Part shown: one piece after another, positions 3,973 to 59,804 of the stretch | How positions within the stretch are numbered: position 1 is the first letter of the stretch | Layout: the number at the start of each line of letters is the position of its first letter | From: an uncultured Clostridia bacterium | GTDB lineage: Bacteria; Bacillota; Clostridia; Christensenellales; UBA1242 | Assembly: GCA_944383415.1 (NCBI GenBank) | Contig: CALWPK010000006.1 | Location: 28,224-92,223, forward strand | Length of the DNA: 64,000 nt | Reading direction: 5' to 3' | Program-made: the position numbers and the translations under genes | The notes under the pieces: generated by a model | What the model saw: the letters and a program-made list of their open reading frames with translations, nothing else | Databases searched by the model: none | Told to the model about the DNA's origin: nothing

Positions 3973-5175
3973 GTGAACATTTTTAAGAAATTATATTGTA
4001 GAACATTTCAAATAGTTTTTAGGATAGCGATTCCAATACTGCCGTACCGCGAACCTCAAATTTTGACTAGCAATGACGAATTAGTTTCAACACTACTTGA
4101 AAATAATACCAAAAGCGTTTTGCTTGTGACAGATGCGGGACTCACTAATTTGGGTTTATATAATAGTCTAGTTGACGCAATGAGAGAAAAGGGTGTGAAA
4201 GTCAGTGTTTATGATAAAACAGTGGCAAATCCTACTACTCAAAATGTTGATGAAGCACTTGGAATGTATAGAGACAATGCGTGCAATGCAATTATTGCAT
4301 TTGGAGGCGGATCTTCTATGGACTGTGCGAAAGCCACTGGTGCACGAGTGGCGCGACCAAAGAAGACTCTTGGGCAAATGAAAGGCATACTTAAGGTGGG
4401 GAAAAAGATTCCGCTATTGATCGCGGTGCCAACTACAGCAGGCACAGGAAGTGAGACAACGCTTGCAGCAGTGATTACAGATAGTGAAACAAGACATAAA
4501 TATGCGATAAACGATTTCCCATTAATACCAAGTTACGCTATGTTGGACGCAAATTTGACAGTTGGGCTTCCAAAATTTGTCACAGCAACAACAGGAATGG
4601 ATGCACTTACTCACGCGGTTGAGGCTTACATTGGACGTAGCACCACCAAAGATACTAGACAAAATGCATTAGAGGCTGTGAAACTGGTGTTTGAAAATTT
4701 ATACAAAGCATACGAAGATGGTGACAATTTAGAGGCTAGAGACAATATGTTGCAAGCGGCGTTCAAGGCTGGGACAGCATTTACAAAATCTTATGTAGGA
4801 TATGTGCACGCGATCGCTCATTCGTTGGGCGGGAAATATAATGTTCCACATGGACTTGCTAATGCTATAATTTTACCTTATGTTTTGAAAAAATATGGAC
4901 GTGCAATATACAAAAAACTTTGGGAAATGGGCGTGTATGCAAATCTTTTTGATTCGGATACATCGATTGAAGCGGGTGCGAAGATTTTTATAGAAAAAAT
5001 TGAAGATTTGAATAAATCTATGAATATAGGCACTTCAATCCCAGAGATCAAAGGTGAAGATGTGTCGTACCTTGCGATAACTGCAGAGAAAGAGGCAAAT
5101 CCTTTGTATCCTGTTCCAGTATTGTATACTGCAGAGCAGTTAGAAAAAATATATTACGAGGTAAAGAATGGATAA
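3973..5175 (+). CDS. Iron-containing (group III) alcohol dehydrogenase
   Basis: GGGSSMDCAK and HAIAHSLGGKYNVPHGLANA motifs are present. The GTG start lies 7 nt after AAGGAG. Confidence 0.9.
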   Translation: MNIFKKLYCRTFQIVFRIAIPILPYREPQILTSNDELVSTLLENNTKSVLLVTDAGLTNLGLYNSLVDAMREKGVKVSVYDKTVANPTTQNVDEALGMYRDNACNAIIAFGGGSSMDCAKATGARVARPKKTLGQMKGILKVGKKIPLLIAVPTTAGTGSETTLAAVITDSETRHKYAINDFPLIPSYAMLDANLTVGLPKFVTATTGMDALTHAVEAYIGRSTTKDTRQNALEAVKLVFENLYKAYEDGDNLEARDNMLQAAFKAGTAFTKSYVGYVHAIAHSLGGKYNVPHGLANAIILPYVLKKYGRAIYKKLWEMGVYANLFDSDTSIEAGAKIFIEKIEDLNKSMNIGTSIPEIKGEDVSYLAITAEKEANPLYPVPVLYTAEQLEKIYYEVKNG

Positions 5176-21154: not shown

Positions 21155-22471
21155 ATGACTAAAAAACGATCAAAGTGCTTATTTGTTGTGTTTTCTATTC
21201 TTTTAGTTATATGTTTGATTGCTAGTTTTGTTAATTTCACTTATCCTTTTACAATTAATGGAAACTACTATTCTTATTCTAATTTTGTATCAAATTTGAA
21301 ATTAGGCGAAGATATAGGGAAAACATATAGAATAGTCTATAGAGCAGAACTTCCAGAAGGTGAGGCTCAATCGAATTATGACAATCTACGAACATCTACT
21401 AAGGAAGAGTTGAAACACATTCTTCAAAGTGAAGGGTACAGAGATGTTACGGCTAGCGAGTATGGCACAGACTCAATTCTTATACAGGTTGGAAATATCT
21501 TAACAATAGACGATGAAAATGAAATTGTAAACCTAATTGGTTCGCCCGCTACTGTTAGTTTTTCTATGAATAGTGACAATTCTGATCCATTTGCTGGAGC
21601 AAAAGATATTGAAAATGTATATGCAACGTCATATTATGACCAAGAGATTGCCGAGAATGTGTATGTAGTCTTGATAGATTTCAATGATGATATGATAGAC
21701 TCAATAGCAGATGCCACAGCAGATGGTGGCACTGTCTATATTTTCTTCGGTGACACGCAATTCACTCAGATGGATTTGGGTTCTTCTGCTATAACTGAAG
21801 GCGTGATATATATGCAGAGTGATGATTTTCAAAGTCTAGCACATGCCAACACCGTAGCGAATAGGATCAAAACAGGTATGCTAGATCTTGAATTGACCAC
21901 TGTTGAATCAGGCTCTGTCAGTCCAACCTATGGAGTTGGGGCGAATTTATGGATCGCGGTAGCAATGGCGATATTTATCTTGATAGGATTCATTTTCTTA
22001 ATAGTGAAATATCGTCATCTTGGCTGGCTTGCTTGTTTCAATTTGTTATTCTTCATTACAATCAGTTTATTCCTATTGCAATCAATTCCATTGGTACATT
22101 TGAATTTTGCTGGAATGATAGGATTTTTGATTGCATTCATATTCGTTGTTGATAGTTTCATATCAATATTCGAAAAAGCAAAAGAACATTATAATCAGGA
22201 TACTAAATTGTATATTGCAATGAAAGTGGCGCAAAGCGAGACCCTTACTAAAACATTCGTTATGAACGTCGGATTGATGATTGTAGGGCTTATTAGTTTG
22301 TTTATGCCATCACTCGCTGTTCAATCATTTGGTTGGGCAGTATTCGTAATGTCATTTGTAAGCCTGTTCTGTGTTCAGGTGCTCAATAGGCTGTTTATCA
22401 AAATGTATCTTCCATTCAATAGCACCGACGGCAAGAAATGCAACTTCCACAAAGGAGGACAAAATGCTTAA
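21155..22471 (+). CDS. secD: Protein translocase subunit SecD
   Basis: An N-terminal TM helix, a large extracytoplasmic domain and a C-terminal 5-TM bundle. It is followed by an overlapping secF. Confidence 0.88.
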   Translation: MTKKRSKCLFVVFSILLVICLIASFVNFTYPFTINGNYYSYSNFVSNLKLGEDIGKTYRIVYRAELPEGEAQSNYDNLRTSTKEELKHILQSEGYRDVTASEYGTDSILIQVGNILTIDDENEIVNLIGSPATVSFSMNSDNSDPFAGAKDIENVYATSYYDQEIAENVYVVLIDFNDDMIDSIADATADGGTVYIFFGDTQFTQMDLGSSAITEGVIYMQSDDFQSLAHANTVANRIKTGMLDLELTTVESGSVSPTYGVGANLWIAVAMAIFILIGFIFLIVKYRHLGWLACFNLLFFITISLFLLQSIPLVHLNFAGMIGFLIAFIFVVDSFISIFEKAKEHYNQDTKLYIAMKVAQSETLTKTFVMNVGLMIVGLISLFMPSLAVQSFGWAVFVMSFVSLFCVQVLNRLFIKMYLPFNSTDGKKCNFHKGGQNA

Positions 22472-23444
22472 TAGAGATTTTTCAAAGTCAAATAAGGAAT
22501 ATTTCAAAAAAAATAAATATGCAATTTTGGTCTTAGTTGCATTTTTGGTGATTGGTATAATTGTCCTAGCGTGTTTTGGAATGAATTCAAATTTTGAATT
22601 GGCTGGCTACAATGAATTCACCGTAAGGGTAGGTGCAGAGACATCGAATTATAATGAATATATTGAGAAAATTCAGTCGGCGATAAATAGCGAGAATGGT
22701 GATTATGATTCGTTTTCAATAATGGGCGAGGGAGACGACACTACACTCATCATTCGCTACAATCGTGATTTAACGAGTGAACAACAATCAAATATCAACG
22801 ATACCATAGTTGAAGATTTGTCAATTACAATTGAAGACGTGTCCGCACATTCTTATGTTTCTCCAGTGGTGGAGAATACTGATTATATATTTACCGCTTT
22901 AACTATCATTTTGATGCTGATTTTGTCTAGCATATTTGCATACTTTAGATATAATACCGCCAGTGCTCTCACCACTATTATATCTTCATTGATCGGTACA
23001 TTGATCTTCATTTCAATTGGTGCAATCTTGAGACTAAGCATCGGAATGAGTTATTTTGCAGTGCTAGTAATAATCAATCTGCTGATGATGTTCTTTGCAT
23101 TCAATATATTTGAGCATATTCGGGAGAAGAATTGGTTGCAGACTGATCAATATTCGCTCGCCATTGATTCTTCAATGAAGGCTAATAGATTCCGTTTATG
23201 TGCATTAAATATAGGAATCTTCTTGATTGGTCTTTTATTAGTGATATTAGCGCCAACAAGTATAAAATATATTTCACTCAACATTTTGTTTATGGCGGTT
23301 GTGGTGTTGGCGGTCGAATTGTATGTCGTACCATTTTGTTGGAGCGTATTCATTACATTATGCAAAAAACGTGAGGTAAAAGTAAAGGCGGATAAAGAGA
23401 AAGTTATCGAAGAATCTATATCAAAAAAGGATAATGAACAATAG
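22464..23444 (+). CDS. secF: Protein translocase subunit SecF
   Basis: The ATG at 22464 follows AAGGAGG and overlaps the secD end by 8 nt. The topology is SecF-like. Confidence 0.85.
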   Translation: MLNRDFSKSNKEYFKKNKYAILVLVAFLVIGIIVLACFGMNSNFELAGYNEFTVRVGAETSNYNEYIEKIQSAINSENGDYDSFSIMGEGDDTTLIIRYNRDLTSEQQSNINDTIVEDLSITIEDVSAHSYVSPVVENTDYIFTALTIILMLILSSIFAYFRYNTASALTTIISSLIGTLIFISIGAILRLSIGMSYFAVLVIINLLMMFFAFNIFEHIREKNWLQTDQYSLAIDSSMKANRFRLCALNIGIFLIGLLLVILAPTSIKYISLNILFMAVVVLAVELYVVPFCWSVFITLCKKREVKVKADKEKVIEESISKKDNEQ

Positions 23445-37873: not shown

Positions 37874-38141
37874 TAGAAAATAGAAGATTATGTGAGTGAT
37901 TGAAATTGTTGGAATAATAGCATCTATATTAGTATAGATATCAATGTGTTTCAATTCTACCTCATATAAAGGTTCTCTTTTGATGCGGACGTTCAATTTG
38001 GTAGCGTTATACTTATAGTTTATGGTTCATTGATACGAGCGTTTAGTGATATTTTAAATGGTGTGCTAGTATTGGTGAATATTTACTATCTAATAGATTT
38101 AATAGTTAAAATTCAAAAATAAAATAAATAAGGAGTAATTT

Positions 38142-38801
38142 ATGAACATTACAGCAAAAGATGTCGCTCAATTGCGCGATATGACTGGTGCAGGAATGAT
38201 GGATTGCAAAAAGGCATTGGTAGACGCCGATGGCAATATGGATAAGGCTGTCGAACTTCTACGCGAAAGAGGAGTTGCTAAGGCTGCCAAGAAAGAGGGC
38301 AGAATCGCAGCCGAAGGATTCATTGACTCTTATGTGCACGGTGGCGGAAGTTTTGCTTCCCTTGTTGAAATCAACACAGAGACAGATTTTGCGGCAAAAA
38401 ATGAAGAATTGAGAGAGTTTGCTCACAATATTGCGATGCAGGTTGTAGCATCACGTCCTATTTGTGTGAATATTGATGAGGTTCCACAAGACAAAATCGA
38501 TGCAGAACGCAATATCTATCGTGTTCAACTTTTGAATGAAGGCAAACCTGAGGCAATGGTAGACAAAATCGTCGATGGCAAGATCAACAAATATTATGAA
38601 GAAGTCGTTTTGATGGAGCAACCTTATATTAGAGACGATTCAGGCAAGAAAAAGGTCAAAGACGTTTTGACTGAATTAGTTGCTAAAATCGGTGAGAAAA
38701 TCACTATCAGACGTTTCTATATGATGACAATGGGTGAAGGACTTACCAAGCGTAATGACGACTTTGCGGCAGAAGTTGCGGCTCAGACCAAAACAAAATA
38801 G
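38142..38801 (+). CDS. tsf: Translation elongation factor Ts (short form)
   Basis: ITAKDVAQLRDMTGAGMMDCKKAL and the LVEINTETDFAAKN motif are present. Confidence 0.96.
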   Translation: MNITAKDVAQLRDMTGAGMMDCKKALVDADGNMDKAVELLRERGVAKAAKKEGRIAAEGFIDSYVHGGGSFASLVEINTETDFAAKNEELREFAHNIAMQVVASRPICVNIDEVPQDKIDAERNIYRVQLLNEGKPEAMVDKIVDGKINKYYEEVVLMEQPYIRDDSGKKKVKDVLTELVAKIGEKITIRRFYMMTMGEGLTKRNDDFAAEVAAQTKTK

Positions 38802-38827
38802 TATATCAACCTTTTTGATGTTTAATG

Positions 38828-38860
38828 AAACTTTTGAGTTTTTGCTCAGAAGTTTTTTTT
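38828..38860 (+). terminator. Intrinsic terminator after tsf
   Basis: An 11-bp stem pairs AAACTTTTGAG with CTCAGAAGTTT (one G-U pair), followed by T8. Confidence 0.85.
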
Positions 38861-39109
38861 GTTGATATTAATGGAAATTTTTGATTTTTTCTTAATAATT
38901 TATAATAACCTATTCTTAGGATAATTTTACGAAAAATTTAATTTTATCAATATATTTCATTGAATAAATAGTATGATGAGATAGACTATTTTTTTCGTTT
39001 TTATGAATGAAAACCAGCGGAATTTACCTATTTCCCCCCTCAGATAGCAGATATTTATATAAATATATGAAAATTTATATAAAATTTTCGTATGGCATAT
39101 TGAATTTAC

Positions 39110-39141
39110 TTGACAAGGCTAGGGGGGGGGGGCATTAGAAT
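39110..39141 (+). promoter_or_regulatory. Candidate promoter of the surface-protein gene, with a G11 tract in the spacer
   Basis: TTGACA (39110-39115), a 20-nt spacer containing G11, then TAGAAT (39136-39141). An alternative -10, TATAAT, lies at 39149-39154. The SD AAGGAG lies at 39182-39187. Confidence 0.5.
39122..39132. repeat. Homopolymeric G11 tract
   Basis: Read directly from the sequence: A GGGGGGGGGGG C. It is the longest G/C run seen in the window. Confidence 0.99.
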
Positions 39142-39192
39142 ATAAGTGTATAATAATGTACGGAAAATACAAATTAATACAAAGGAGATAAG

Positions 39193-42100
39193 ATGGAAAA
39201 TCAAGAAAAGAAACCAAAGTCAACCAAGAATACAAACGCAAAGGATGTAGAGAAGAAAGTCTCTACATCGAAAGCAAGCAAAGCGAATGCCACCACTCAA
39301 GAAAGAGCAGTGAAATCTAATGCTAGTAAGCAGAGTGCAAGCAAGAGAGGTGTCAAGACTGAACCTAAGCAGACTGACGAGGTAGTGAAAGGTCAAGAGG
39401 TCGCTGTAGACACAGCAGATGTGGAGAGGAACAGTTCGAGTGACGACTTCAGTATACAGAGTCAGGGCGAGAGGATCAAGAAGAATGCGGGTAAGAATAG
39501 CAAGCGAAAGAAAGCAGCGATAGCCACTGCTGTAGTTTTGCTGGTCACAGCGAGCGTAGCAATACCTACAGCGGTATACCTATCTAGAAGGAAAGTGTCA
39601 GTAGATATCTCAAATAATATTGACGTGATACAAGAGTATACAGTAAATATCAAGCGAGGTAGCACGATCAAGGACATAGTTCCACAAGAGATCACGGGAT
39701 ATACATTCGTAGGGTTCTACAAGGATGCCGAACTCACCGTGCCATACAAAGATACGGATAAGATAAATAAAAATATGACCATATATGCCAAGTATGAGGC
39801 GAATGTATATAAGGTGACCTTCCCAACCAGCCCAGCATTCACCATTGAGGGCGAGGATATAGTGAACAACCAGGTAGAGATAGAGTACAACACAGAGTAT
39901 AGATTCAAACTAAATCTCGCTACAGGTTATAACGAGAGCGATATCACAGTCAAAGTGAATGGAGAGACCATCACACCAGATAAAGAAGGATACTATACTC
40001 TCACAATCTATGGAGACACACTAGTAGAGGTAGAAGGCGTGGAGATCAACACCTATGAGGTGACATTCTATGATAGCCTAGAGAAAAACGAGATATATCA
40101 AAGACTAGACATAGATTACAACGAACTCTGCACCTACACAGGCGTCACTCCAACTAAGCATAGCACCCATACATATACCTACACATTCATAGGCTGGGTA
40201 GATGCGGATGGTAATCCGGTAGACCTCAGCACTACCAATATAGTGACCGATCTAGAACTCTTCGCCAACTTCCGAGAAGAATATATAGAGTACACGATAT
40301 CCAAGCCAGAGCAAGTGAATGTGAAATTCGGAGATCTGTATTTATCCAACACAGCCACACTTCACTATGGAGATATAGTAGAGATAACTTATGACACCAC
40401 AGAGGGACACGATGTCACTGCTTTTTCTGTATCAGGAGCAGAGAAAGTAGAGGGGAGTGAGAATCAATATAAGATCACAGGCAACCTAGTGGTCACCTAT
40501 AGTGAGGAGATACAGAAATTCACAGTGCAAATAGTGTCTAGCAATTTTGAATATGGTTCAATTAATCAATCTAGCATAACAGTAGAGTATGGCACGACAT
40601 ATACAGTGGAAGGGAATGTATTAAGATTTAGTGATGGACAGACTGTGACAGCCACACCAGAGACAAACACTGCTCAGTATACATATACTTTTTTAGATTG
40701 GACAAGTGAGAGTGGCACAGTCACGGGAGAGGCTACGATCACAGCGAACTTCACTCGAGAGACGAATACCTACACAGTGTCTATTCAGAGCAACAATACA
40801 GAGTATGGCACAGTGACTGAATCTAGCGTGACAGTAGAGTATGGCACGGAGATAACCGTCAGTGGCAATACGATAACGATAGGAGAATATGCGATCACTG
40901 CTACACCTACTACCAGCACAGCACAATACTCATATTCATTCGCTAGTTGGAGCACTGGCAACACTACTGTCACAGGAGAGATTACAATCACAGCCACATT
41001 CACTCAAACAGTACAGACATATACCGTGACTTGGCAGAACTGGGACGGCACCACTCTAGAGACAGACACATCAGTTCCTTACGGCACTACTCCAGAGTAC
41101 AACGGAGAGACCCCTACACGTGAGGAGACCGCAAGCCATAGTTATACCTTCATAGGATGGGATCAAGAGATAAGCCCAGTGACAGGAGACATCACATACA
41201 CAGCCATATTCGACTCTGAGATCAAAGCGAGTTATGACTTCACCATAGAGGACGGCATCATCACCTCATACACAGGAAATGACACATACGTAGTTCTCCC
41301 AAGCACATATTCACTAAGTGAACCAATGGCGGTCTATGATTGTGCATTAGGTTATAGCGTCCTAATGAATATCATGTCGGGAACTGGAAATTATTTTGAG
41401 ATGTTAAATTATTCACCATTTGGATTTTATTTAATAGAAGATCAAGTTAAGGTCTTATTTACTAATATAAATGAGTTTATAGAATACCTTAACTCAATTA
41501 CATCGCTAAATCTACCATTCCAAATTGAATTGATATATGAATATGAGGTAGAAAGTTTAGATTCAATGACTACAGATACCAGATTGTTAGCACTGTTAGA
41601 TTGGACAGATACAGCAGGAAACACATTTTCTATAGAAACTGCAGATGGGAAAACACTATCAGGTTTGACCAAAGCGAATTATATTAGCGAAATCAACGCT
41701 CTCTATTCGGATTCGGGCAACATTGATTCAGCATTTCCAGCCAAAGTGAGCATATCACCATATATGATGCAATACGCTGTACCAGGAGATGACTATGAGG
41801 TGACCAGCATAGGAGGTGGTGCATTCGGCGAATGTAGCAGTCTCACCAGTATCACTATACCAGATAGTGTGACCAGCATAGGAAATTCTGCATTCGAAGG
41901 TTGTACCAGTCTCACCAGCATCATCATACCAGATAGTGTGACCAGCATAGGAGAGTGGGCATTCTCAGGATGTAGCAGTCTCACTAACATCATTATACCA
42001 AAGAGCGTGACTAGCATAGGAGAGTATGCATTCTCAGGATGTAGCAGTCTCACCAGCATCACTATACCAGATAGTGTGACCAGCATAGGAGAGAGGGTAT

Positions 42101-42399
42101 TCAATAATTGTTATAATCTCACCAGCATCACCATACCAGATAGTGTGACCAGCATAGGATATTATGCATTCGAAGATTGTAGCAGTCTCACCAGTGTGAC
42201 TATAGAGAGCAATTATGCGTACGCGAATGCGGGTACAGGATATTATCAATGTGGATATCTTTTAGAAAATGCTACTGAGGTGAGGGTGCTGATCAGTTGT
42301 ATTGAAGAGGGTAGCACGAATAGTTATCTTGAGGACACAGCGACCTTCACCAAGACCACCTCTGAGGACGGACTATATTATATTTACACAAAAAGGTAA
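39193..42399 (+). CDS. Large membrane-anchored surface protein with Listeria-Bacteroides (InlB B-type) repeats and C-terminal BspA-type LRRs
   Basis: A Lys/Ser-rich ~105-aa N-terminus precedes a single TM helix ([23 protein letters not shown]). Multiple ~80-aa units with the ...YTFIGW... signature follow, then six 23-aa LRRs ([22 protein letters not shown]). Confidence 0.9.
41800..42213 (+). repeat. Six tandem 69-bp near-identical coding repeats (LRR units)
   Basis: GTGACC/GTGACT recurs at 41800, 41869, 41938, 42007, 42076 and 42145, an exact 69-nt period, with long identical stretches (e.g. AGCAGTCTCACCAGCATCACTATACCAGATAGTGTGACCAGCATAGGAGAG). Confidence 0.95.
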
Positions 42400-42408
42400 T
42401 GATTGAAT

Positions 42409-43389
42409 ATGCGTGAGAATTATAAGATATCTATCATCATCCCAGTGTACAATGCGATTAAATATTTGCCAAAGTGTATTGAATCTATATTGTCACAGAC
42501 TTATGGCAATCTGGAGGTCATTTTCGTGGATGACGCCTCTACGGACGGCAGTAGAGAGTATATAGAGAAGATTATAGATAGATTCAAACAAGCGAGATTG
42601 ATCAAGAATGAGACTAATATCAAGCCATTTTTGTCGAGGATCAAAGGGTTTGAGCAATGCACGGGAGATTTCGTCATTTGTTTAGACGGTGATGATTATG
42701 TCGATAGTGATTATTATGAAAAATTGCTGAATAAAATAGTCGAGACAGATGCGGATATGTGCATAGGAGATACGACGATGGAGGGCTATCAGAACATAAT
42801 CGATTCGTCCACATTTGATTTCCGTACGGAATATTATGAAGGCGGAGAATGCCTAGACTACTTGCTTTTCTCAAACGAGAATAGGAATTTCTCCGTCTGG
42901 AACAAACTGGTGAAACGATCGGTCTTGAATACTGCGCTAGAGGATATGAAACAATATAATAATATTGAAAATAAGATCAGTTTCAGTGACGATGTCATCA
43001 CATTGCTAATAGTGGGATACTACGTGAAAAAATTGGTGGCTATGTTGGGACCTTGTTATCATTATGTGTATCATTACGAGCAGTCTACGAACATCACAGA
43101 CAAAGATCAACTTGCATTTCAATTGTATAGTTTGAAAAGGGGACGCAATATTGCATTGGATTTTTTGGAAAAGAAAAATCTATTGGCTAAATATGAAGAT
43201 TCTATAATCAGGAGATTCAATAAATCCTTTCTAAAACTAAAAAATGATGCCTATGTCAATGGGTATATGAAGGATCCAAATATAAAAAAATCATTCGAAT
43301 CTACGATAGTTGATTTGCGAAATTCGAATTTATATGGTAATATGAAGAAAGTAAATATTTTCAAGCCATTTGAAAAATATAAGCATTAG
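42409..43389 (+). CDS. Family-2 glycosyltransferase (paralogue A)
   Basis: ISIIIPVYNA, IFVDDASTDGS and a DGDDY DxD-type motif are present. The ATG at 42409 is preferred to the TTG at 42403. Confidence 0.88.
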   Translation: MRENYKISIIIPVYNAIKYLPKCIESILSQTYGNLEVIFVDDASTDGSREYIEKIIDRFKQARLIKNETNIKPFLSRIKGFEQCTGDFVICLDGDDYVDSDYYEKLLNKIVETDADMCIGDTTMEGYQNIIDSSTFDFRTEYYEGGECLDYLLFSNENRNFSVWNKLVKRSVLNTALEDMKQYNNIENKISFSDDVITLLIVGYYVKKLVAMLGPCYHYVYHYEQSTNITDKDQLAFQLYSLKRGRNIALDFLEKKNLLAKYEDSIIRRFNKSFLKLKNDAYVNGYMKDPNIKKSFESTIVDLRNSNLYGNMKKVNIFKPFEKYKH

Positions 43390-43442
43390 ATGTTTCGTCC
43401 ATCTAGGTTTGATTTTGATAATATTTACGAAATATATGAATT

Positions 43443-44429
43443 ATGACAGAGAAGAAAATATCTATTTTAATACCAGTATATAATGTGAAAAGATTTCTGC
43501 CTAAGTGCATTGATTCGCTAGTCAATCAGACCTATGGCAATCTTGAGATTATTTTCGTGGATGACGCCTCTACAGACGGCAGTAGAGAGTATCTTGAGGA
43601 AAACATTAATAGGTTGAAAAATGCGAGATTGATCCTGCACGAGCGAAACAAAAATTTGTTTTTGACACGAATCTCTGCTATGCGTGAGTGTACAGGAGAT
43701 TTCATCATCTGCCTAGATAGCGATGACTATGTGGACTATGATTATTACGAAGTGCTGGTCAAAAGAATGATCGATACTGGGGCGGATATGTGCATAGGCG
43801 ATATGCAGTTTGAGAACGGGGACAAGAAATTCGATAGATTTTCTAATGCAAGATTCGAAAAAGATTGCTACCTAAACGGCGAGTGTATTGACTATCTTCT
43901 CTTTTCGAATAACAATCAATTAATTTCGGTTTGGAACAAAATGATCAGTCGCAGGGTGCTGGATCGCTCGCTCACAGATATTGAGAAAATGGTGGATGGT
44001 GCGGAGGGTATAAATGTGTGTGAGGACAATATTTTCCTATTCGTTTTCGCGTACTATACTGAAAAACTTGTACGTGCCACTGGATCTAAATATCACTATG
44101 TACAACACGACAATCAATCGACCGTTTTCAATGACAAGGACAAATTAATTTCACAACTAAATAGCCTACAAAAAGCCGTTGATAGAATCATAATTTTTTT
44201 GAAAGAAAGAAATCTGTATCAACAATATGAAGACCGGATATTGAATAAATATAATTCGGTTTTTCTATTTTTGAAAAACAAGGTATATCAAAACGGATTT
44301 TCAAAAGATCCAGAGATTAAAAAAGCGTTTAATTTTGATTTTAAATCTAAATTTAAGTTCAAATATTCAGACAAACCTAAAATAAATTTATTTAAATTCG
44401 ATAATTTTAAAAACATAAAGTTAAAATAA
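43443..44429 (+). CDS. Family-2 glycosyltransferase (paralogue B)
   Basis: ISILIPVYNV, IFVDDASTDGS and DSDDY are present. It has the same length (328 aa) and is collinear with paralogue A. Confidence 0.88.
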   Translation: MTEKKISILIPVYNVKRFLPKCIDSLVNQTYGNLEIIFVDDASTDGSREYLEENINRLKNARLILHERNKNLFLTRISAMRECTGDFIICLDSDDYVDYDYYEVLVKRMIDTGADMCIGDMQFENGDKKFDRFSNARFEKDCYLNGECIDYLLFSNNNQLISVWNKMISRRVLDRSLTDIEKMVDGAEGINVCEDNIFLFVFAYYTEKLVRATGSKYHYVQHDNQSTVFNDKDKLISQLNSLQKAVDRIIIFLKERNLYQQYEDRILNKYNSVFLFLKNKVYQNGFSKDPEIKKAFNFDFKSKFKFKYSDKPKINLFKFDNFKNIKLK

Positions 44430-44513
44430 TATTACAAATACAAATCACTACTATTGGCGTTATCCAAAATAGACTCCGTAGAGTTTAATTGATCACATAA
44501 ATTTTGTAAAATT

Positions 44514-44563
44514 AACAGTTTGATACTCATTATACTTTTGAGTTTACATACTGTTATTTTTTT
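44514..44563 (+). terminator. Possible terminator after the glycosyltransferase pair
   Basis: AACAGT...ACTCA pairs with TGAGT...ACTGTT in an interrupted hairpin, followed by A-T7. Confidence 0.4.
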
Positions 44564-44740
44564 CCGTATCAATTACATAAATAATATACATAAAATACTT
44601 TCAGAAAATAAACGCAGATTATAATTATAAAACGATAAATTTTGATTTTTAATCGCGAAAAGATAGAAAATATCATTTTGATTATCAAATAAGTTGCAAT
44701 TTTTTTCAATATTTTGTAGTATAAACTTATAGGAGAAATT

Positions 44741-48292: not shown

Positions 48293-48329
48293 GTCAGGAT
48301 TGTTATAGTTGACAATTCTGACTTTTTTT
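48293..48329 (+). terminator. Strong intrinsic terminator after rseP
   Basis: A 10-bp stem pairs GTCAGGATTG (48293-48302) with CAATTCTGAC (48313-48322), with one G-U pair. T7 follows at 48323-48329. Confidence 0.85.
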
Positions 48330-48337
48330 GATATATT
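48309..48337 (+). promoter_or_regulatory. Sigma-A promoter with extended -10 embedded in the rseP terminator
   Basis: TTGACA (48309-48314), a 17-nt spacer ending in TGa, then TATATT (48332-48337). The next ATG (48345) lies 7 nt downstream. Confidence 0.55.
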
Positions 48338-48344
48338 TACATTT

Positions 48345-49865
48345 ATGAACGATAGACTAGATATTTTAGATAGATTATATGATGGATTAAAATTCAAAAA
48401 CGCAACCTATACAGAAAATAATAATACCTGCGTAATGAATTTTTTGTACAATCCAGATGTTTTCAAGCCAAATGAACAAAATAGAATTGAATTATTAAAC
48501 AAATTCAAAGAGATCATTGGGGATTATGTCAAATTTGATATAAAATTTACAAATTGCCCATTGGATAAACGCACTATAGCGAACTATACATATTCAACTA
48601 TTGTCAATATATTTCCTGCGATTTCTAAAAATTTTACTTATGACGATGTATCGGTAAATATAGAGAATATGAAAGTAAATATCACTTTGCGTTTATCACC
48701 ATCAGCGTATGAATATGCGAAGAGTCTGAATAGAGAGACTTTGATCGCTGAAAAATTGAAAGAAAGTTTTTTTGCTGATTTTTCTGTCCAATTCGAAAGA
48801 AAAGACGATGAGGTGGTCGTAGAAAACCGAATAGAAAGTAATGCTGAATTTATGTCATCAATCAAGGAGGCTGAGGAAAAAACTGTTTATGAATTGTCCA
48901 ATCAGGCGAATATAATAGGAATAAATGATTATAATTTGGCTACAGATTTTACAAAAGTTAAGTCACCAGTTGAAAATGTAGCAATTTGTGGTGAAGTGAA
49001 TTCTGTTCAGCGCAAGACATACAAGCGGAACTATACAAGAAATGGAGAGACGAAAGAAATTGAACGCGCCTTTTATAATTTTACACTGCGAAACGAAAAC
49101 AAATTCTTGTATTGTGTAATTTTCCCAAAACAAGCAGATGAAGCGAAAGGTGATTTGATCGAAGTGGGGATGAAAGTGTGTTGTTTTGGTTCATTTAGGG
49201 AATTTAATGGCAAAATGAATTTTACAGCCAATTCAATCGCTCGATGTGAATTCAAACGAGAAGAAATAAAATCTCAATTTAAACACGTCAATGAAGAATA
49301 TCATACCGTTTTCCCTCAAAAATATGTTGATTATGAACAAGCGGATCTATTTTCAGATGCCGAAAAGACTTTTGATGGCAGTTTCGTAGTGTTTGACTTG
49401 GAGACTACAGGACTTGAATCTACAAAGGATGAAATAATTGAGATTGGTGCGTGTAAAATTTTGCAGGGCAAAATTGTTGAAACGTTCTCTACTTTTGTCA
49501 AACCTAGTAGACATATTCCGAAAGAAATTACAGATCTGACGGGGATTGATGATACTATGGTTGAAAACGCTCCAACAATCAATTACGTATTGCCAGATTT
49601 TTATAAATTTTGCTATGCTTCGACAATGGTGGGGCACAATGTATCATTTGATATTTCATTTATATATTTCATAGCGAAAAAACTATCATATAATTTTGAC
49701 AATCCACTAATGGACACATTGGAGATGGCGAGAGCGAAACTGCCAGGATTGAAGAATTACAAATTGTCTACAGTGGTAGAAAGACTCAATATTGTACTCG
49801 ACAACGCGCACCGCGCCATCAATGACGCCACTGCTACCGCAAAAGTTTTTATAAAATTGTATTAA
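48345..49865 (+). CDS. DEDDh 3'-5' exonuclease (DnaQ/PolC-exo type) fused to a ~330-aa N-terminal region with an OB-fold-like segment. No polymerase or PHP domains are present.
   Basis: Exo motifs are present: FVVFDLETTGL (I), HNVSFDISFI (II) and HRAINDATATAKVF (III). The OB-like pattern is NVAICGEV....FTLRNENKFLYCVIFPK....GMKVCCFGSF. It occupies the polC slot between rseP and rimP. The track start at 48309 is the -35 box inside the terminator. Confidence 0.8.
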   Translation: MNDRLDILDRLYDGLKFKNATYTENNNTCVMNFLYNPDVFKPNEQNRIELLNKFKEIIGDYVKFDIKFTNCPLDKRTIANYTYSTIVNIFPAISKNFTYDDVSVNIENMKVNITLRLSPSAYEYAKSLNRETLIAEKLKESFFADFSVQFERKDDEVVVENRIESNAEFMSSIKEAEEKTVYELSNQANIIGINDYNLATDFTKVKSPVENVAICGEVNSVQRKTYKRNYTRNGETKEIERAFYNFTLRNENKFLYCVIFPKQADEAKGDLIEVGMKVCCFGSFREFNGKMNFTANSIARCEFKREEIKSQFKHVNEEYHTVFPQKYVDYEQADLFSDAEKTFDGSFVVFDLETTGLESTKDEIIEIGACKILQGKIVETFSTFVKPSRHIPKEITDLTGIDDTMVENAPTINYVLPDFYKFCYASTMVGHNVSFDISFIYFIAKKLSYNFDNPLMDTLEMARAKLPGLKNYKLSTVVERLNIVLDNAHRAINDATATAKVFIKLY

Positions 49866-56493: not shown

Positions 56494-56617
56494 TTTTTTG
56501 TCAATTTTGTCTAGGCAAAAATTAATGTAAAAATAAATATAAAGTCGAAAAATCAGTACTATTGTGGTATTGATTTTTTTTGCGTATTTTTTTCATTTTC
56601 ATCTAATAGTTTTAAGT

Positions 56618-57526
56618 ATGTTAAAAGACTATTTAGATAGGGATATTTACAATTTAATAACAAAAACCTTCAGTTTTTCTGACATTACTGAAATACGTAT
56701 GCGTGCAAATGAAAATTTGATTATCATTGTAAAAAATAAAAAATATTATTTGAAAGATGATAATGGCGAATTCGTGAAAGTCAATAGAAATGTTATTGAA
56801 AATTTCGTTAGACGAGCGAGTGAAAACTCTATCTACGCTTTCAATGACAATATAGTAAATGGCTTTATAACTCTTCCTAAAGGGATACGCGTTGGGCTGT
56901 GTGGGAATATTGTGACAGATGGAGACAAGATCGTCACAGTAAAAGATTTTCAATCGGTCAACATTCGTATTCCACACGTGATTAGGAATTGCAGTTTGCC
57001 AGCCTTTGATTATTTAGTAAACGATGATGTCAAAAATACTTTAATAATATCTCCGCCCGGAAGTGGGAAAACAACGTTTATCAGAGATTTTATCTATCAA
57101 TTATATACTCATAATATATCGAAAAACGTTTTGATAGCAGATGAAAGGAACGAAATCTGTTCGGTAATAAATGGTGAACCAAATATAGATTTGGGAGGTT
57201 TTTGCGATATTTACACAAATTGTACAAAAAAATTTGCTTTCAAAAACGGCATACGCAGTATGCGTCCAGACGTGATAGTGACAGACGAAATAGATCTTGA
57301 AAAAGATCTGGACTCAATCGTCGAAGCAATGAATTGTGGAGTGAACGTGATTGCTACCATACACGCAAAAGATATAAATCAACTGAAAAAGAAACCAAAT
57401 TTTGATAAGATTTTGGACGAAAAGTTTTTTTCTAGATTTGTAGTTCTATCAAGCGATGAGGGACCTGGAACGCTGACAAATATTTATGATGAAAAATTAA
57501 ACTGTATCTATTGTAGGTGCGTATGA
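56618..57526 (+). CDS. spoIIIAA: Stage III sporulation protein AA (AAA ATPase)
   Basis: Walker A ISPPGSGKTT and Walker B VIVTDEI are present. It is the first gene of an 8-gene spoIIIA-like operon. The start is taken as the ATG at 56618 (no clear SD), because the track start lies in the efp terminator region. Confidence 0.88.
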   Translation: MLKDYLDRDIYNLITKTFSFSDITEIRMRANENLIIIVKNKKYYLKDDNGEFVKVNRNVIENFVRRASENSIYAFNDNIVNGFITLPKGIRVGLCGNIVTDGDKIVTVKDFQSVNIRIPHVIRNCSLPAFDYLVNDDVKNTLIISPPGSGKTTFIRDFIYQLYTHNISKNVLIADERNEICSVINGEPNIDLGGFCDIYTNCTKKFAFKNGIRSMRPDVIVTDEIDLEKDLDSIVEAMNCGVNVIATIHAKDINQLKKKPNFDKILDEKFFSRFVVLSSDEGPGTLTNIYDEKLNCIYCRCV

Positions 57527-57999
57527 TCAAATGGATCTTAATCATTATTCTAATAGTTGTGATTATGTTGATTGCATATTCTGTTAGTGAACAAATTAGA
57601 GATAAATATGATTTTTTTAACAATTTGAAACAATTTTTGAATCAATTTAAAATCAATGTCGCTTTTAGACAAGAAAAAATCAATGAATTTTTGCAAAAAA
57701 GCAATTCAAAAAAACAATTTAAAGTATTTGTTGATGAGTATTTAAATTTTTTAAAGACAGGCGAACTTTGCTTGGAAAAAATAAAAGTATTGGAAGAGGA
57801 TGATAAACAAATTTTGCAAGATATAGTGAAAAACATTGGTAAATATGATGCTAAGAATGAAATCAGTCAGATGGAATCGTTTTTATTGACAGTTGATGAA
57901 AAATTGGCAAAGGCAAATGAAGATAAAAATAAACTTTGTCCTATGATAATAAAACTTTCACTGCTCTTTGCAATTGGACTAGCAATTTTATTGATTTAG
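57517..57999 (+). CDS. spoIIIAB: Stage III sporulation protein AB
   Basis: It has the size, N- and C-terminal TM helices and operon position expected of SpoIIIAB. Confidence 0.8.
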   Translation: MRMIKWILIIILIVVIMLIAYSVSEQIRDKYDFFNNLKQFLNQFKINVAFRQEKINEFLQKSNSKKQFKVFVDEYLNFLKTGELCLEKIKVLEEDDKQILQDIVKNIGKYDAKNEISQMESFLLTVDEKLAKANEDKNKLCPMIIKLSLLFAIGLAILLI

Positions 58000-58007
58000 G
58001 AGGAAAT

Positions 58008-58196
58008 ATGGAAATAATTTTCAAACTGGCAGGAATTGGATTAATTACTTCTATTGTGAATCAGATACTTAAATATTGCGGGAAAGAAGAAATCGCTTCT
58101 ATTACAACTCTGGCGGGCTTGATAATTAGTTTGCTTATGGTCATAGATTTGGTGAGGGATCTGTTCACGACCGTACAATCATTATTTATTTTTTAG
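58008..58196 (+). CDS. spoIIIAC: Stage III sporulation protein AC
   Basis: This is a 62-aa two-TM protein (MEIIFKLAGIGLITSIV...). The ATG at 58008 follows AGGAGG. Confidence 0.85.
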   Translation: MEIIFKLAGIGLITSIVNQILKYCGKEEIASITTLAGLIISLLMVIDLVRDLFTTVQSLFIF

Positions 58197-58203
58197 GTAG
58201 GGT

Positions 58204-58590
58204 ATGACAGAATTATTAAAGATATTAGCAGTGGCGTTAATTACTGTGTTTGCATCAATATTAGTCAAGCAAACCCGACCAGAAATAGCGATGATCATAT
58301 CCATTGCTGGTAGTATTTTGATAATAGTGATGATTGTAGACAGCATTAGTTCTGTCCTATCTTCTTTTTATGGAATATTTCAAACTACAGGCGTAGATAC
58401 GACACTACTGACTCCTTTGTTTAAAATTATTGCCATAGGGTACATTACAGAATTTGGAGCAAATATATGTTTGGATGCGGGGGCGAGTAGCGTGGCTGAC
58501 AAAGTGCTTTTTGCCGGCAAACTGGTCATTTTGCTTGTGGCACTTCCAATAGTGACGACTGTAATAAATATGGTGGTATCATTATTATGA
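58204..58590 (+). CDS. spoIIIAD: Stage III sporulation protein AD
   Basis: This is a 128-aa polytopic protein in the expected operon position. Confidence 0.85.
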   Translation: MTELLKILAVALITVFASILVKQTRPEIAMIISIAGSILIIVMIVDSISSVLSSFYGIFQTTGVDTTLLTPLFKIIAIGYITEFGANICLDAGASSVADKVLFAGKLVILLVALPIVTTVINMVVSLL

Positions 58591-59804
58591 ATAAATTGAA
58601 AAATGTCCATTCAAACAAAATGACAATAATATGTATGATATTGCTAATATCATTATTTTCTATATTTTCTCCTATGGCTACATTTTGTGCCGAAAACACA
58701 ACTGTAGAGATCAGCGAAGATCTGAACAATTCAATAATAGACGAATTGAATGAAATCGATTTTTCAGCACTCAATGGAGTGGTAGAAGAATTTCAAAACA
58801 ATAGTACAAACATCTTTTCAATTGATAACATTAAAAGCAAAGTTTATTCTATCATTTCTGGCGAAAACGCAGTGTCGTATTCCTCATTTTTCGCAAGTGT
58901 ATTTTCAATCTTTGTAGATTTGATAGTGAAATATCTTCCTATGCTTTCACTAATTGTGGCAATAGGTGTAATAAGCAATTTATTAAATGGTATCAAGAGC
59001 AAATTCAATGAAAAGTCTACAAGCGGACTGATTCATTTTGTGTGTTTTCTAGCGGTAGTCGTACTTACAATAGGTATGATTAGTTCGATTAGCAAGACGA
59101 GCGTATCTTCAGTCAATTCTATGGTGTCGCAAATGAATGCTATATTCCCGATACTTTTGACATTAATGATAGGTATAGGCGCCACAGCAAGTGCAGGCGT
59201 ATTTCAACCAATTGTGGCAATAATTTCAACCTATGTAGCAGATTTTTTCACATATTTAATATTGCCACTATTTATGGTCAGTTTCGTGTTCGGAATTATT
59301 AATAATCTATCAGATAATATCAAATTGGATAAGTTTAATTCGTTCATCTCTAGTTTGTTCAAATGGTGTGTTGGGTTGATATTTACATTATTCTTCGCTG
59401 TATTCACTATTCAGGGAATATCGGCGGGAACTTTTGATAGCCTCAGCATTAGGACTACAAAATATACAATCAAGAGTTATATCCCTATTATGGGAGGTTA
59501 TCTATCAGACGGAATGGATTTGATTCTTTCTAGCACAATCCTTATCAAGAATGCGGTAGGTTTAGTTGGTATTCTTATGATTATCAGTACTATTATATCA
59601 CCATTGATAGAAATAGTAGTATTTAGTTTGCTATTAAAACTTGTGAGTGCAATCTTGCAACCTATGGGAAATAATAAAACCTCAAATTTTCTTATGTCAA
59701 CTTCAAAGTCAATAACAATGCTGTCGTCTTGTATAATAGCGGTAGGATTTATGTATTTGATATCGGTAGGGTTGGTAATGACTACCTCAAATGTGGTGAT
59801 GTGA
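58587..59804 (+). CDS. spoIIIAE: Stage III sporulation protein AE
   Basis: This is a ~405-aa polytopic membrane protein with a signal-like N-terminus, in the expected operon position. Confidence 0.88.
   Translation: MNKLKNVHSNKMTIICMILLISLFSIFSPMATFCAENTTVEISEDLNNSIIDELNEIDFSALNGVVEEFQNNSTNIFSIDNIKSKVYSIISGENAVSYSSFFASVFSIFVDLIVKYLPMLSLIVAIGVISNLLNGIKSKFNEKSTSGLIHFVCFLAVVVLTIGMISSISKTSVSSVNSMVSQMNAIFPILLTLMIGIGATASAGVFQPIVAIISTYVADFFTYLILPLFMVSFVFGIINNLSDNIKLDKFNSFISSLFKWCVGLIFTLFFAVFTIQGISAGTFDSLSIRTTKYTIKSYIPIMGGYLSDGMDLILSSTILIKNAVGLVGILMIISTIISPLIEIVVFSLLLKLVSAILQPMGNNKTSNFLMSTSKSITMLSSCIIAVGFMYLISVGLVMTTSNVVM

Follow-up and report, generated by a model that had tools for sequence, protein, structure and literature searches.

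A length-variable poly-G tract as a candidate promoter-spacer switch for a surface-protein gene of an uncultured Clostridia bacterium

In Neisseria meningitidis, the length of a core-promoter tract (poly-G in porA, poly-C in opc) sets the promoter spacer and results in high, intermediate, or no expression. Haemophilus hif is a further established example of repeat tract behavior in a promoter spacer. Mycoplasma hyorhinis carries a poly-A tract in each vlp promoter, and its vlp genes adopt independent, combinatorial on and off states. For the vlp family, PMC4198240 cites Citti & Wise 1995 and Yogev et al. 1995. The general principle of promoter-spacer tract switching is cited in PMC9187656 and PMC11868660, and promoter-spacer G tracts are mentioned only in passing in the former.

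Related mechanisms are described in other organisms. In the gut commensal Bifidobacterium breve, G-tract slippage controls a sortase-pilus (PMC9187656). For Ca. Mycoplasma girerdii, BspA-like genes are reported to switch through simple-sequence repeats (SSRs), and most copies are predicted to be “off” in the majority genotype (PMC5476646). For Clostridia, a 2025 review of phase variation covers only the inversion switches of Clostridioides difficile (PMC11868660). Across the literature searched, phase variation of Clostridia and Bacteroides is described as DNA inversion, and repeat-driven contingency loci come mainly from Neisseria, Haemophilus, Campylobacter, Helicobacter, Bordetella, and mycoplasmas. 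That search returned no promoter homopolymer switch for Clostridia or spore-forming Firmicutes, which leaves the absence of one unproven.

The locus described here lies in a 64-kb stretch of DNA (the window; 34% G+C) from an uncultured Clostridia bacterium, with all promoter features on the forward strand. The predicted -35 hexamer TTGACA (39110-39115) is followed by a spacer of 20 nt as assembled (39116-39135) and then by the proposed -10 hexamer TAGAAT (39136-39141). The spacer is composed of AGGCTA (39116-39121), a G11 homopolymer (39122-39132), and CAT (39133-39135), so that consensus boxes stand on both sides of the tract. A second conserved box, TATAAT (39149-39154; (G)TGTATAAT), lies 7 nt 3′ of TAGAAT and may mark the transcript start or serve as an alternative -10 that has no -35. 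A ribosome-binding site, AAGGAG (39182-39187), stands 5 nt 5′ of the ATG and is conserved in all promoter families. The ATG at 39193 opens a 1068-codon reading frame that ends at 42399. The original prediction had placed TTGACA, AGGCTA, G11, CAT, TAGAAT, and TATAAT at exactly these positions, and its spacer arithmetic (20 nt with G11, 17 nt with G8) was confirmed from the sequence. A simple promoter scan missed the TTGACA/TAGAAT pair only because it accepted spacers of 16-18 nt.

Apart from the G11 tract, G runs in the 64 kb reach at most G5 (8 cases), and the only C run longer than 4 is C6 (39034-39039), so G11 is indeed the longest G/C homopolymer of an AT-rich window, as had been claimed. 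In dinucleotide-preserving shuffles of the window, runs of G9 or longer occur at a mean of 0.01 per shuffle. A G/C run of about 7-8 or more is long enough to slip, and G11 exceeds this length. No further copies of the promoter were found inside the window.

The tract is intergenic and sits 5′ of the ribosome-binding site, 61 nt upstream of the ATG of the surface-protein gene. A frameshifting repeat within a coding region was considered and rejected, given this distance and the in-frame stop (TAG, 39136-39138) that separates the tract from the ATG. The only small open reading frame that spans the tract (39007-39138) was also rejected as a frameshift target, since it is not kept in the other copies. 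The tract therefore lies outside any conserved reading frame, which excludes a frameshift mechanism.

The product of the downstream gene is a 1068-aa protein (39193-42399, +). Its first ~105 aa are rich in Lys and Ser, a single transmembrane helix spans approximately residues 108-130, and the protein contains InlB/Listeria-Bacteroides repeats as well as a BspA-type leucine-rich repeat (LRR) match to LRR_5 (E = 5.7e-55). A KRKK stretch ahead of the helix suggests that the helix is a signal-anchor and that the remainder of the protein is outside the cell. The anchor, the InlB repeats, and the LRR_5 match bear out the label of surface repeat protein that the original prediction had given it. Together with a hypervariable distal part, they indicate a surface-exposed product, and the protein is a putative adhesin. 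Exact look-ups of this protein and of one of its homologues (P0017) found neither on record, and a protein cluster look-up returned no protein names.

Seven A-type alleles of the protein were compared (window 39193-42399 with P0002, P0003, P0005, P0012, P0017, and P0018). They are 92-99% identical over the first ~420 aa and only 10-50% identical beyond that point, where the ectodomains are strongly diverged mosaics; the shortest allele has 1068 aa and the longest 1349 aa. Such a pairing of a conserved stalk and a hypervariable distal region is as expected for a protein that may be under diversifying selection, and by analogy a membrane-anchored, repeat-rich protein with a hypervariable ectodomain would be the usual cargo of a contingency locus. 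The window encodes a second BspA-type LRR_5 protein of 761 aa (7947-10232, -), which has no transmembrane or signal segment and carries a long C-terminal region without a family match. The upstream region of its gene is unrelated to the tract-bearing promoter.

Copies of the promoter were gathered from contigs that encode an identical EF-Ts, whose gene (tsf) is directly upstream, and from contigs that encode homologues of the surface protein. This yielded 17 copies from independent metagenome assemblies, 15 of which are complete and two of which (L009, L010) are cut where the contig ends within the G run. Ten complete copies, including the window, are at the tsf locus and are of A-type; nine of these encode the identical EF-Ts, and the tenth (L091) was found through its near-identical adhesin in the same rpsB-tsf context. 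Tract and spacer lengths at this locus are G11 and 20 nt in the window and L091, G12 and 21 nt in L003, L004, and L006, G10 and 19 nt in L005, G9 and 18 nt in L001, and G6 and 15 nt in L007. Two copies are interrupted, with G5TG4 in L002 and G5AGAG2 in L008, each giving a spacer of 19 nt. Among the ten copies there are thus five uninterrupted lengths and two interrupted forms.

No other site in the 390-nt intergenic region comes near the tract in length variation: the region is otherwise almost unchanged, and the flanks diverge by ≤1%. A single substitution in 327 nt separates L003 (G12) from L005 (G10), and 3 differences in 386 nt separate the window (G11) from L004 (G12). Judged by these comparisons, the tract changes far faster than its surroundings, and the original prediction's question of whether its length is invariant across strains is answered in the negative. 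Polymorphism between assemblies shows hypermutability over evolutionary time and is not a measure of the switching rate within a clone. Interrupted tracts make up 3 of the 15 complete copies at all loci (G5TG4, G5AGAG2, and G5AG4), and the interruptions would damp slippage.

Metagenome homopolymers must be read with care. Illumina reads are reported to fail past G tracts, G-tract lengths in databases are reported to be unreliable, and the short-read consensus length of a long G run may err by about 1 (PMC9187656). In eight of the 17 copies, the contig terminates no more than about 50 nt away (L005-L010 at 3983-4043, L011 at 7025, and L099 at the contig start). Such breaks near the promoter could stem from length heterogeneity within the sample, from Illumina failure past G runs, or from a repeated promoter and 5′ gene module. 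The two contig ends inside the tract are compatible with length change inside a population and are not specific for it. As a practical caution, contigs of this clade tend to break at tract promoters.

The breaks and the known failure of reads past G tracts could also mean that the tract, or its differences in length, are products of poly-G sequencing errors or mis-assembly, and this reading is highly improbable. The tract sits inside long contigs, conserved sequence continues on either side of it, and it recurs at four loci in assemblies of at least three record-naming schemes. Its lengths range over 6-12, homopolymer miscalls do not produce its interrupted alleles, and the three assemblies with G12 are distinguished by flanking SNPs. 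Scans of further collections added no copies: a scan of JGI metagenomes with the exact 21-mer gave no match, a relaxed pattern gave one unrelated AT-rich contig, and a scan of IMG/VR gave six matches that are all unrelated and at chance level.

The assignment of the promoter boxes was drawn from the upstream regions of paralogues in the surface-protein family, which comprises six N-terminal types. These upstream regions are homologous and contain the motif CATATTGAA(T/A)T.. directly 5′ of TTGAC(A/T). Without exception, families A, B, C, E, and F carry TTGAC(A/T), at a distance of 71-78 nt from the ATG. Family D (L094) has TTGTAG in place of TTGAC, 102 nt from the ATG, and a spacer of 18 nt that contains G5. 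The tract-free TTGACT types (L093, L095/96, and L097) place TATACT, TACTAT, or TATAAT (TAnnnT) 18 nt after TTGACT and have a second box, TATAAA, 3-8 nt past the first. In L097, TAGGGGTAT is found where the tract sits in other promoters.

The tract-free paralogues are all at 18 nt, which lends support to the -35/-10 assignment; alignment by position supports TTGACA and TAGAAT as the likely equivalents of a canonical -35/-10 pair. The putative ancestral geometry of 18 nt would correspond to G9 and the textbook optimum of 17 nt to G8, for a predicted canonical range of G8-G9. In the B-type promoter, an overlapping TATATAAT gives two -10 registers, which would make G9-G10 permissive.

G8, the predicted optimum, occurs in none of the 15 complete copies, and G9 occurs in one A-type copy (L001). 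The commonest lengths are 10-12, and most spacers are 19-21 nt, from which weak or no transcription is predicted; the original prediction had not foreseen this distribution. This scarcity of G8-G9 means either that the usual state is off or low, or that the box assignment or the length rule is wrong.

The spread of lengths over 6-12, with no clustering at the predicted optimum, is what would be seen if the tract were hypermutable but without regulatory effect, drifting neutrally in length while transcription started from TATAAT (39149-39154) or from another promoter. The second box, (G)TGTATAAT, also fits such a reading, as families A, B, C, E, and F all retain it 3-8 nt past the first box, where it is at least as conserved as TAGAAT. 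Yet this box lies 27-33 nt from TTGAC, an unusable spacing, and its own -35 position, 17 nt upstream, is occupied by GGGGGG. Neutrality would also leave unexplained why TTGAC(A/T) is invariant in five families and stands exactly 18 nt from the first -10-like box where the tract is absent, and why a run of G9-12, which should decay, has survived at four loci of two species although the flanks have diverged. A neutral tract is accordingly considered unlikely.

A conserved module precedes the core promoter (39065-39109, +). An inverted repeat rich in A and T, with the arms ATATGAAAATTT / AAATTTTCGTAT (39065-39076 / 39082-39093), comes first, and the motif GCATATTGAAT follows immediately before the -35. 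Repeat and motif are both retained across diverged promoter families (the window; L092, L093, L095, and L100 at about 1380-1416), and the motif is kept upstream of TTGAC in promoter families A, B, C, and E. The module is a candidate UP element or site for a shared regulator.

In the Bordetella fim promoters, tract length modulates the action of a regulator rather than sigma-factor spacing. A comparable role here, in which the tract sets the distance from the upstream site (the 39065-39105 repeat and GCATATTGAAT) to the core promoter or is itself bound, draws on the conservation of the repeat and motif across promoter families. It is nonetheless improbable: the tract is 3′ of the -35 and not between the upstream site and the -35, and no regulator gene is evident beside the locus. 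Because the tract is downstream of the -35, a regulator effect would still act through the -35/-10 geometry.

In the window, G/C runs longer than 5 are limited to C6 and G11, and these two fall in imperfect inverted repeats (39028-39048 / 39118-39138) around a 69-nt segment that carries the -35. The arms are 71% complementary and the predicted fold has z = -2.9, which could be taken as an invertible promoter or as pairing within a leader RNA. Either would be extremely surprising. A single orientation is seen in 17 of 17 copies, no recombinase gene is adjacent, and the C run is poorly kept: most copies read TC5, L009 reads CCCTC, L007 has other sequence in its place, and B-type promoters lack it. 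Leader-RNA pairing would need a promoter further upstream to transcribe the region, and none is evident. An inverton built from C6 and G11 was therefore rejected on its unconserved left arm and single orientation. An Rfam scan of 38000-40000 gave only sub-threshold chance matches and no known cis-regulatory RNA.

The TTGACA-polyG-(-10) design recurs at three further loci, in the same species and in a sister species. At the tsf locus of the sister species, the promoter reads TTGACA-AAGGCTAA-G9-TA-TATAAT in L011 and TTGACA-AAGGCTAA-G10-TA-TATAAT in L100. A locus downstream of rplK-rplA carries G11 (L092, 1417-1460). G12 is found in L099 (32-75), which is probably at the same locus; its contig begins just 5′ of the promoter, so that it was assigned by the downstream dUTPase/IS21 genes that it shares with L092. 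An A-type gene beside a GH43 gene has G5AG4 (L101, 1419-1460).

An IS21-family IstB gene is near the promoter copies in L092 and L099. The gene cassette, in which the tract promoter is joined to the conserved 5′ portion of the coding sequence, seems to be mobile or duplicated. L101 and L007 come from one sample and have similar coverage (10.0x and 8.4x), which suggests two tract-bearing copies in one genome. At 34% G+C, a run of G9 or longer would be expected to erode unless selection, or gene conversion between copies of the promoter, preserved it, and the maintenance of long G runs at four loci in AT-rich DNA thus argues for one or the other.

The surface-protein gene is embedded in a conserved translation-gene cluster (rpsB-tsf-...-frr-uppS-cdsA-rseP-...-rimP-nusA-infB-truB). 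The slot between tsf and frr is the usual place of pyrH; here there is no pyrH, and the slot (38802-44740) is filled by the surface-protein gene and two family-2 glycosyltransferase genes (GT2; 42403-43389 and 43443-44429, +; Pfam GT2, E about 1e-35). A strong intrinsic terminator of tsf, with a 13-bp stem and a T run (38827-38862, +), insulates the adhesin promoter against upstream transcription. Its hairpin is tandemly duplicated as a 46-nt unit in two assemblies, L001 (3711-3756) and L005. The first GT2 gene begins 4-10 nt past the adhesin stop, and no terminator was detected within the trio or ahead of frr; co-transcription of both GT2 genes with the surface-protein gene is probable. The same trio is present in L091 and L100.

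The window also carries spoIIIAA and spoIIIAE at 56.5-59.8 kb (56564-59804). A comparison with 185,579 species representatives yielded a single close genome, an uncultured Clostridia MAG (L011) with an EF-Ts that is 98% identical, and the next-best EF-Ts is 57% identical. Both observations are in keeping with the original attribution to a sporulating Firmicute. In Firmicutes, the interval between rseP and rimP-nusA is the usual position of polC. In the window, this interval holds a 518-aa reading frame (48309-49865) that is not a full PolC, as its match to a PolC/DnaQ-type DEDD exonuclease domain is confined to the C-terminal ~165 aa. For SecD/SecF (21155-23444), the mycoplasma-type SecDF model NF046001 scores best or near-best, far below its cutoff, and these scores may hint that the lineage is deeply placed.

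A slipped-strand contingency locus that alters promoter spacer length is the likely explanation for these observations. The G tract would be a hypermutable simple-sequence repeat that forms part of the spacer in a promoter for the housekeeping sigma factor (sigma-A type; TTGACA-N(9+n)-TAGAAT), and slipped-strand mispairing in replication would add or remove one or more G's. The spacer would shift between 15 and 21 nt, with promoter strength following the 17 +/- 1 rule. Transcription of the surface-protein gene would then toggle, in a heritable but reversible way, among three states: strong (about G8-G9, 17-18 nt), weak, and off, and the two downstream GT2 genes would probably be switched together with it. 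With at least four tract-bearing promoter loci in two sister species, a population could vary the surface proteins that it displays. From the anatomy of the promoter and the known behavior of promoter-spacer tracts in Neisseria, Haemophilus, and Mycoplasma, we infer that RNA polymerase uses these boxes, that tract length controls expression, and that the tract changes fast enough within a clone for phase variation. The original proposal of a promoter-spacer slipped-strand switch is thus supported, as a candidate, by the polymorphism of the tract and by the 18-nt geometry of the tract-free paralogues.

Neisseria porA and opc have a G/C homopolymer of ~9-14 nt in the core promoter of a gene for a surface protein; the proposed switch has such a run in a predicted core promoter, and in both cases tract length differs between close strains. 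Unlike those genes, which encode outer-membrane proteins of Gram-negative pathogens and whose switching was shown experimentally, the proposed switch concerns a one-helix-anchored protein of an uncultured endospore-forming Clostridia bacterium. C. difficile has phase-variable surface and signaling genes in endospore-forming Clostridia (cwpV, flgB, cmrRST, and pdcB/pdcC), but these rely on site-specific DNA inversion by a recombinase, of which the present locus has no signature (PMC11868660). In B. breve, G-tract slippage controls a surface adhesive structure and the caveats on reading G-tract lengths are the same, but B. breve is an actinobacterium in which the tract is intragenic and fuses two reading frames (PMC9187656). 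Ca. Mycoplasma girerdii likewise has a large BspA-type LRR surface family and length-variable simple repeats in metagenome data, but its repeats are dinucleotides in or near coding sequence, with phase inferred from frameshifts (PMC5476646). The tract described here is a mononucleotide repeat in a promoter spacer, where it would act at the level of transcription.

The vlp family offers a further comparison. As in vlp, paralogous surface-protein genes have their own homopolymer in homologous promoters, the proteins vary in size, and the lineage of the host is related to Firmicutes. The vlp tracts are poly-A, and the genes encode lipoproteins of a wall-less bacterium and are clustered in one locus, whereas the present copies are poly-G and scattered (after tsf, after rplA, and beside GH43), with several per genome only hinted at by L007 and L101. 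A vlp-like system of scattered InlB-repeat/BspA-LRR paralogues, each with its own poly-G promoter and switching independently to give combinatorial variation of the surface and, by way of the linked glycosyltransferases, of glycans, is proposed only tentatively.

The mechanism itself is classical; what is distinctive is the lineage, the protein family, and the possible multi-locus, vlp-like system. If the multi-locus system exists, it would be the first SSR-based “phasome” in Clostridia. If the switch operates as proposed, promoter poly-G switching would reach a new part of the tree, in an uncultured spore-former with hypervariable surface proteins. Tract length would then serve as a metagenome-readable marker of surface-antigen switching in vivo, and this protein family would be flagged as a probable target of host or phage selection.
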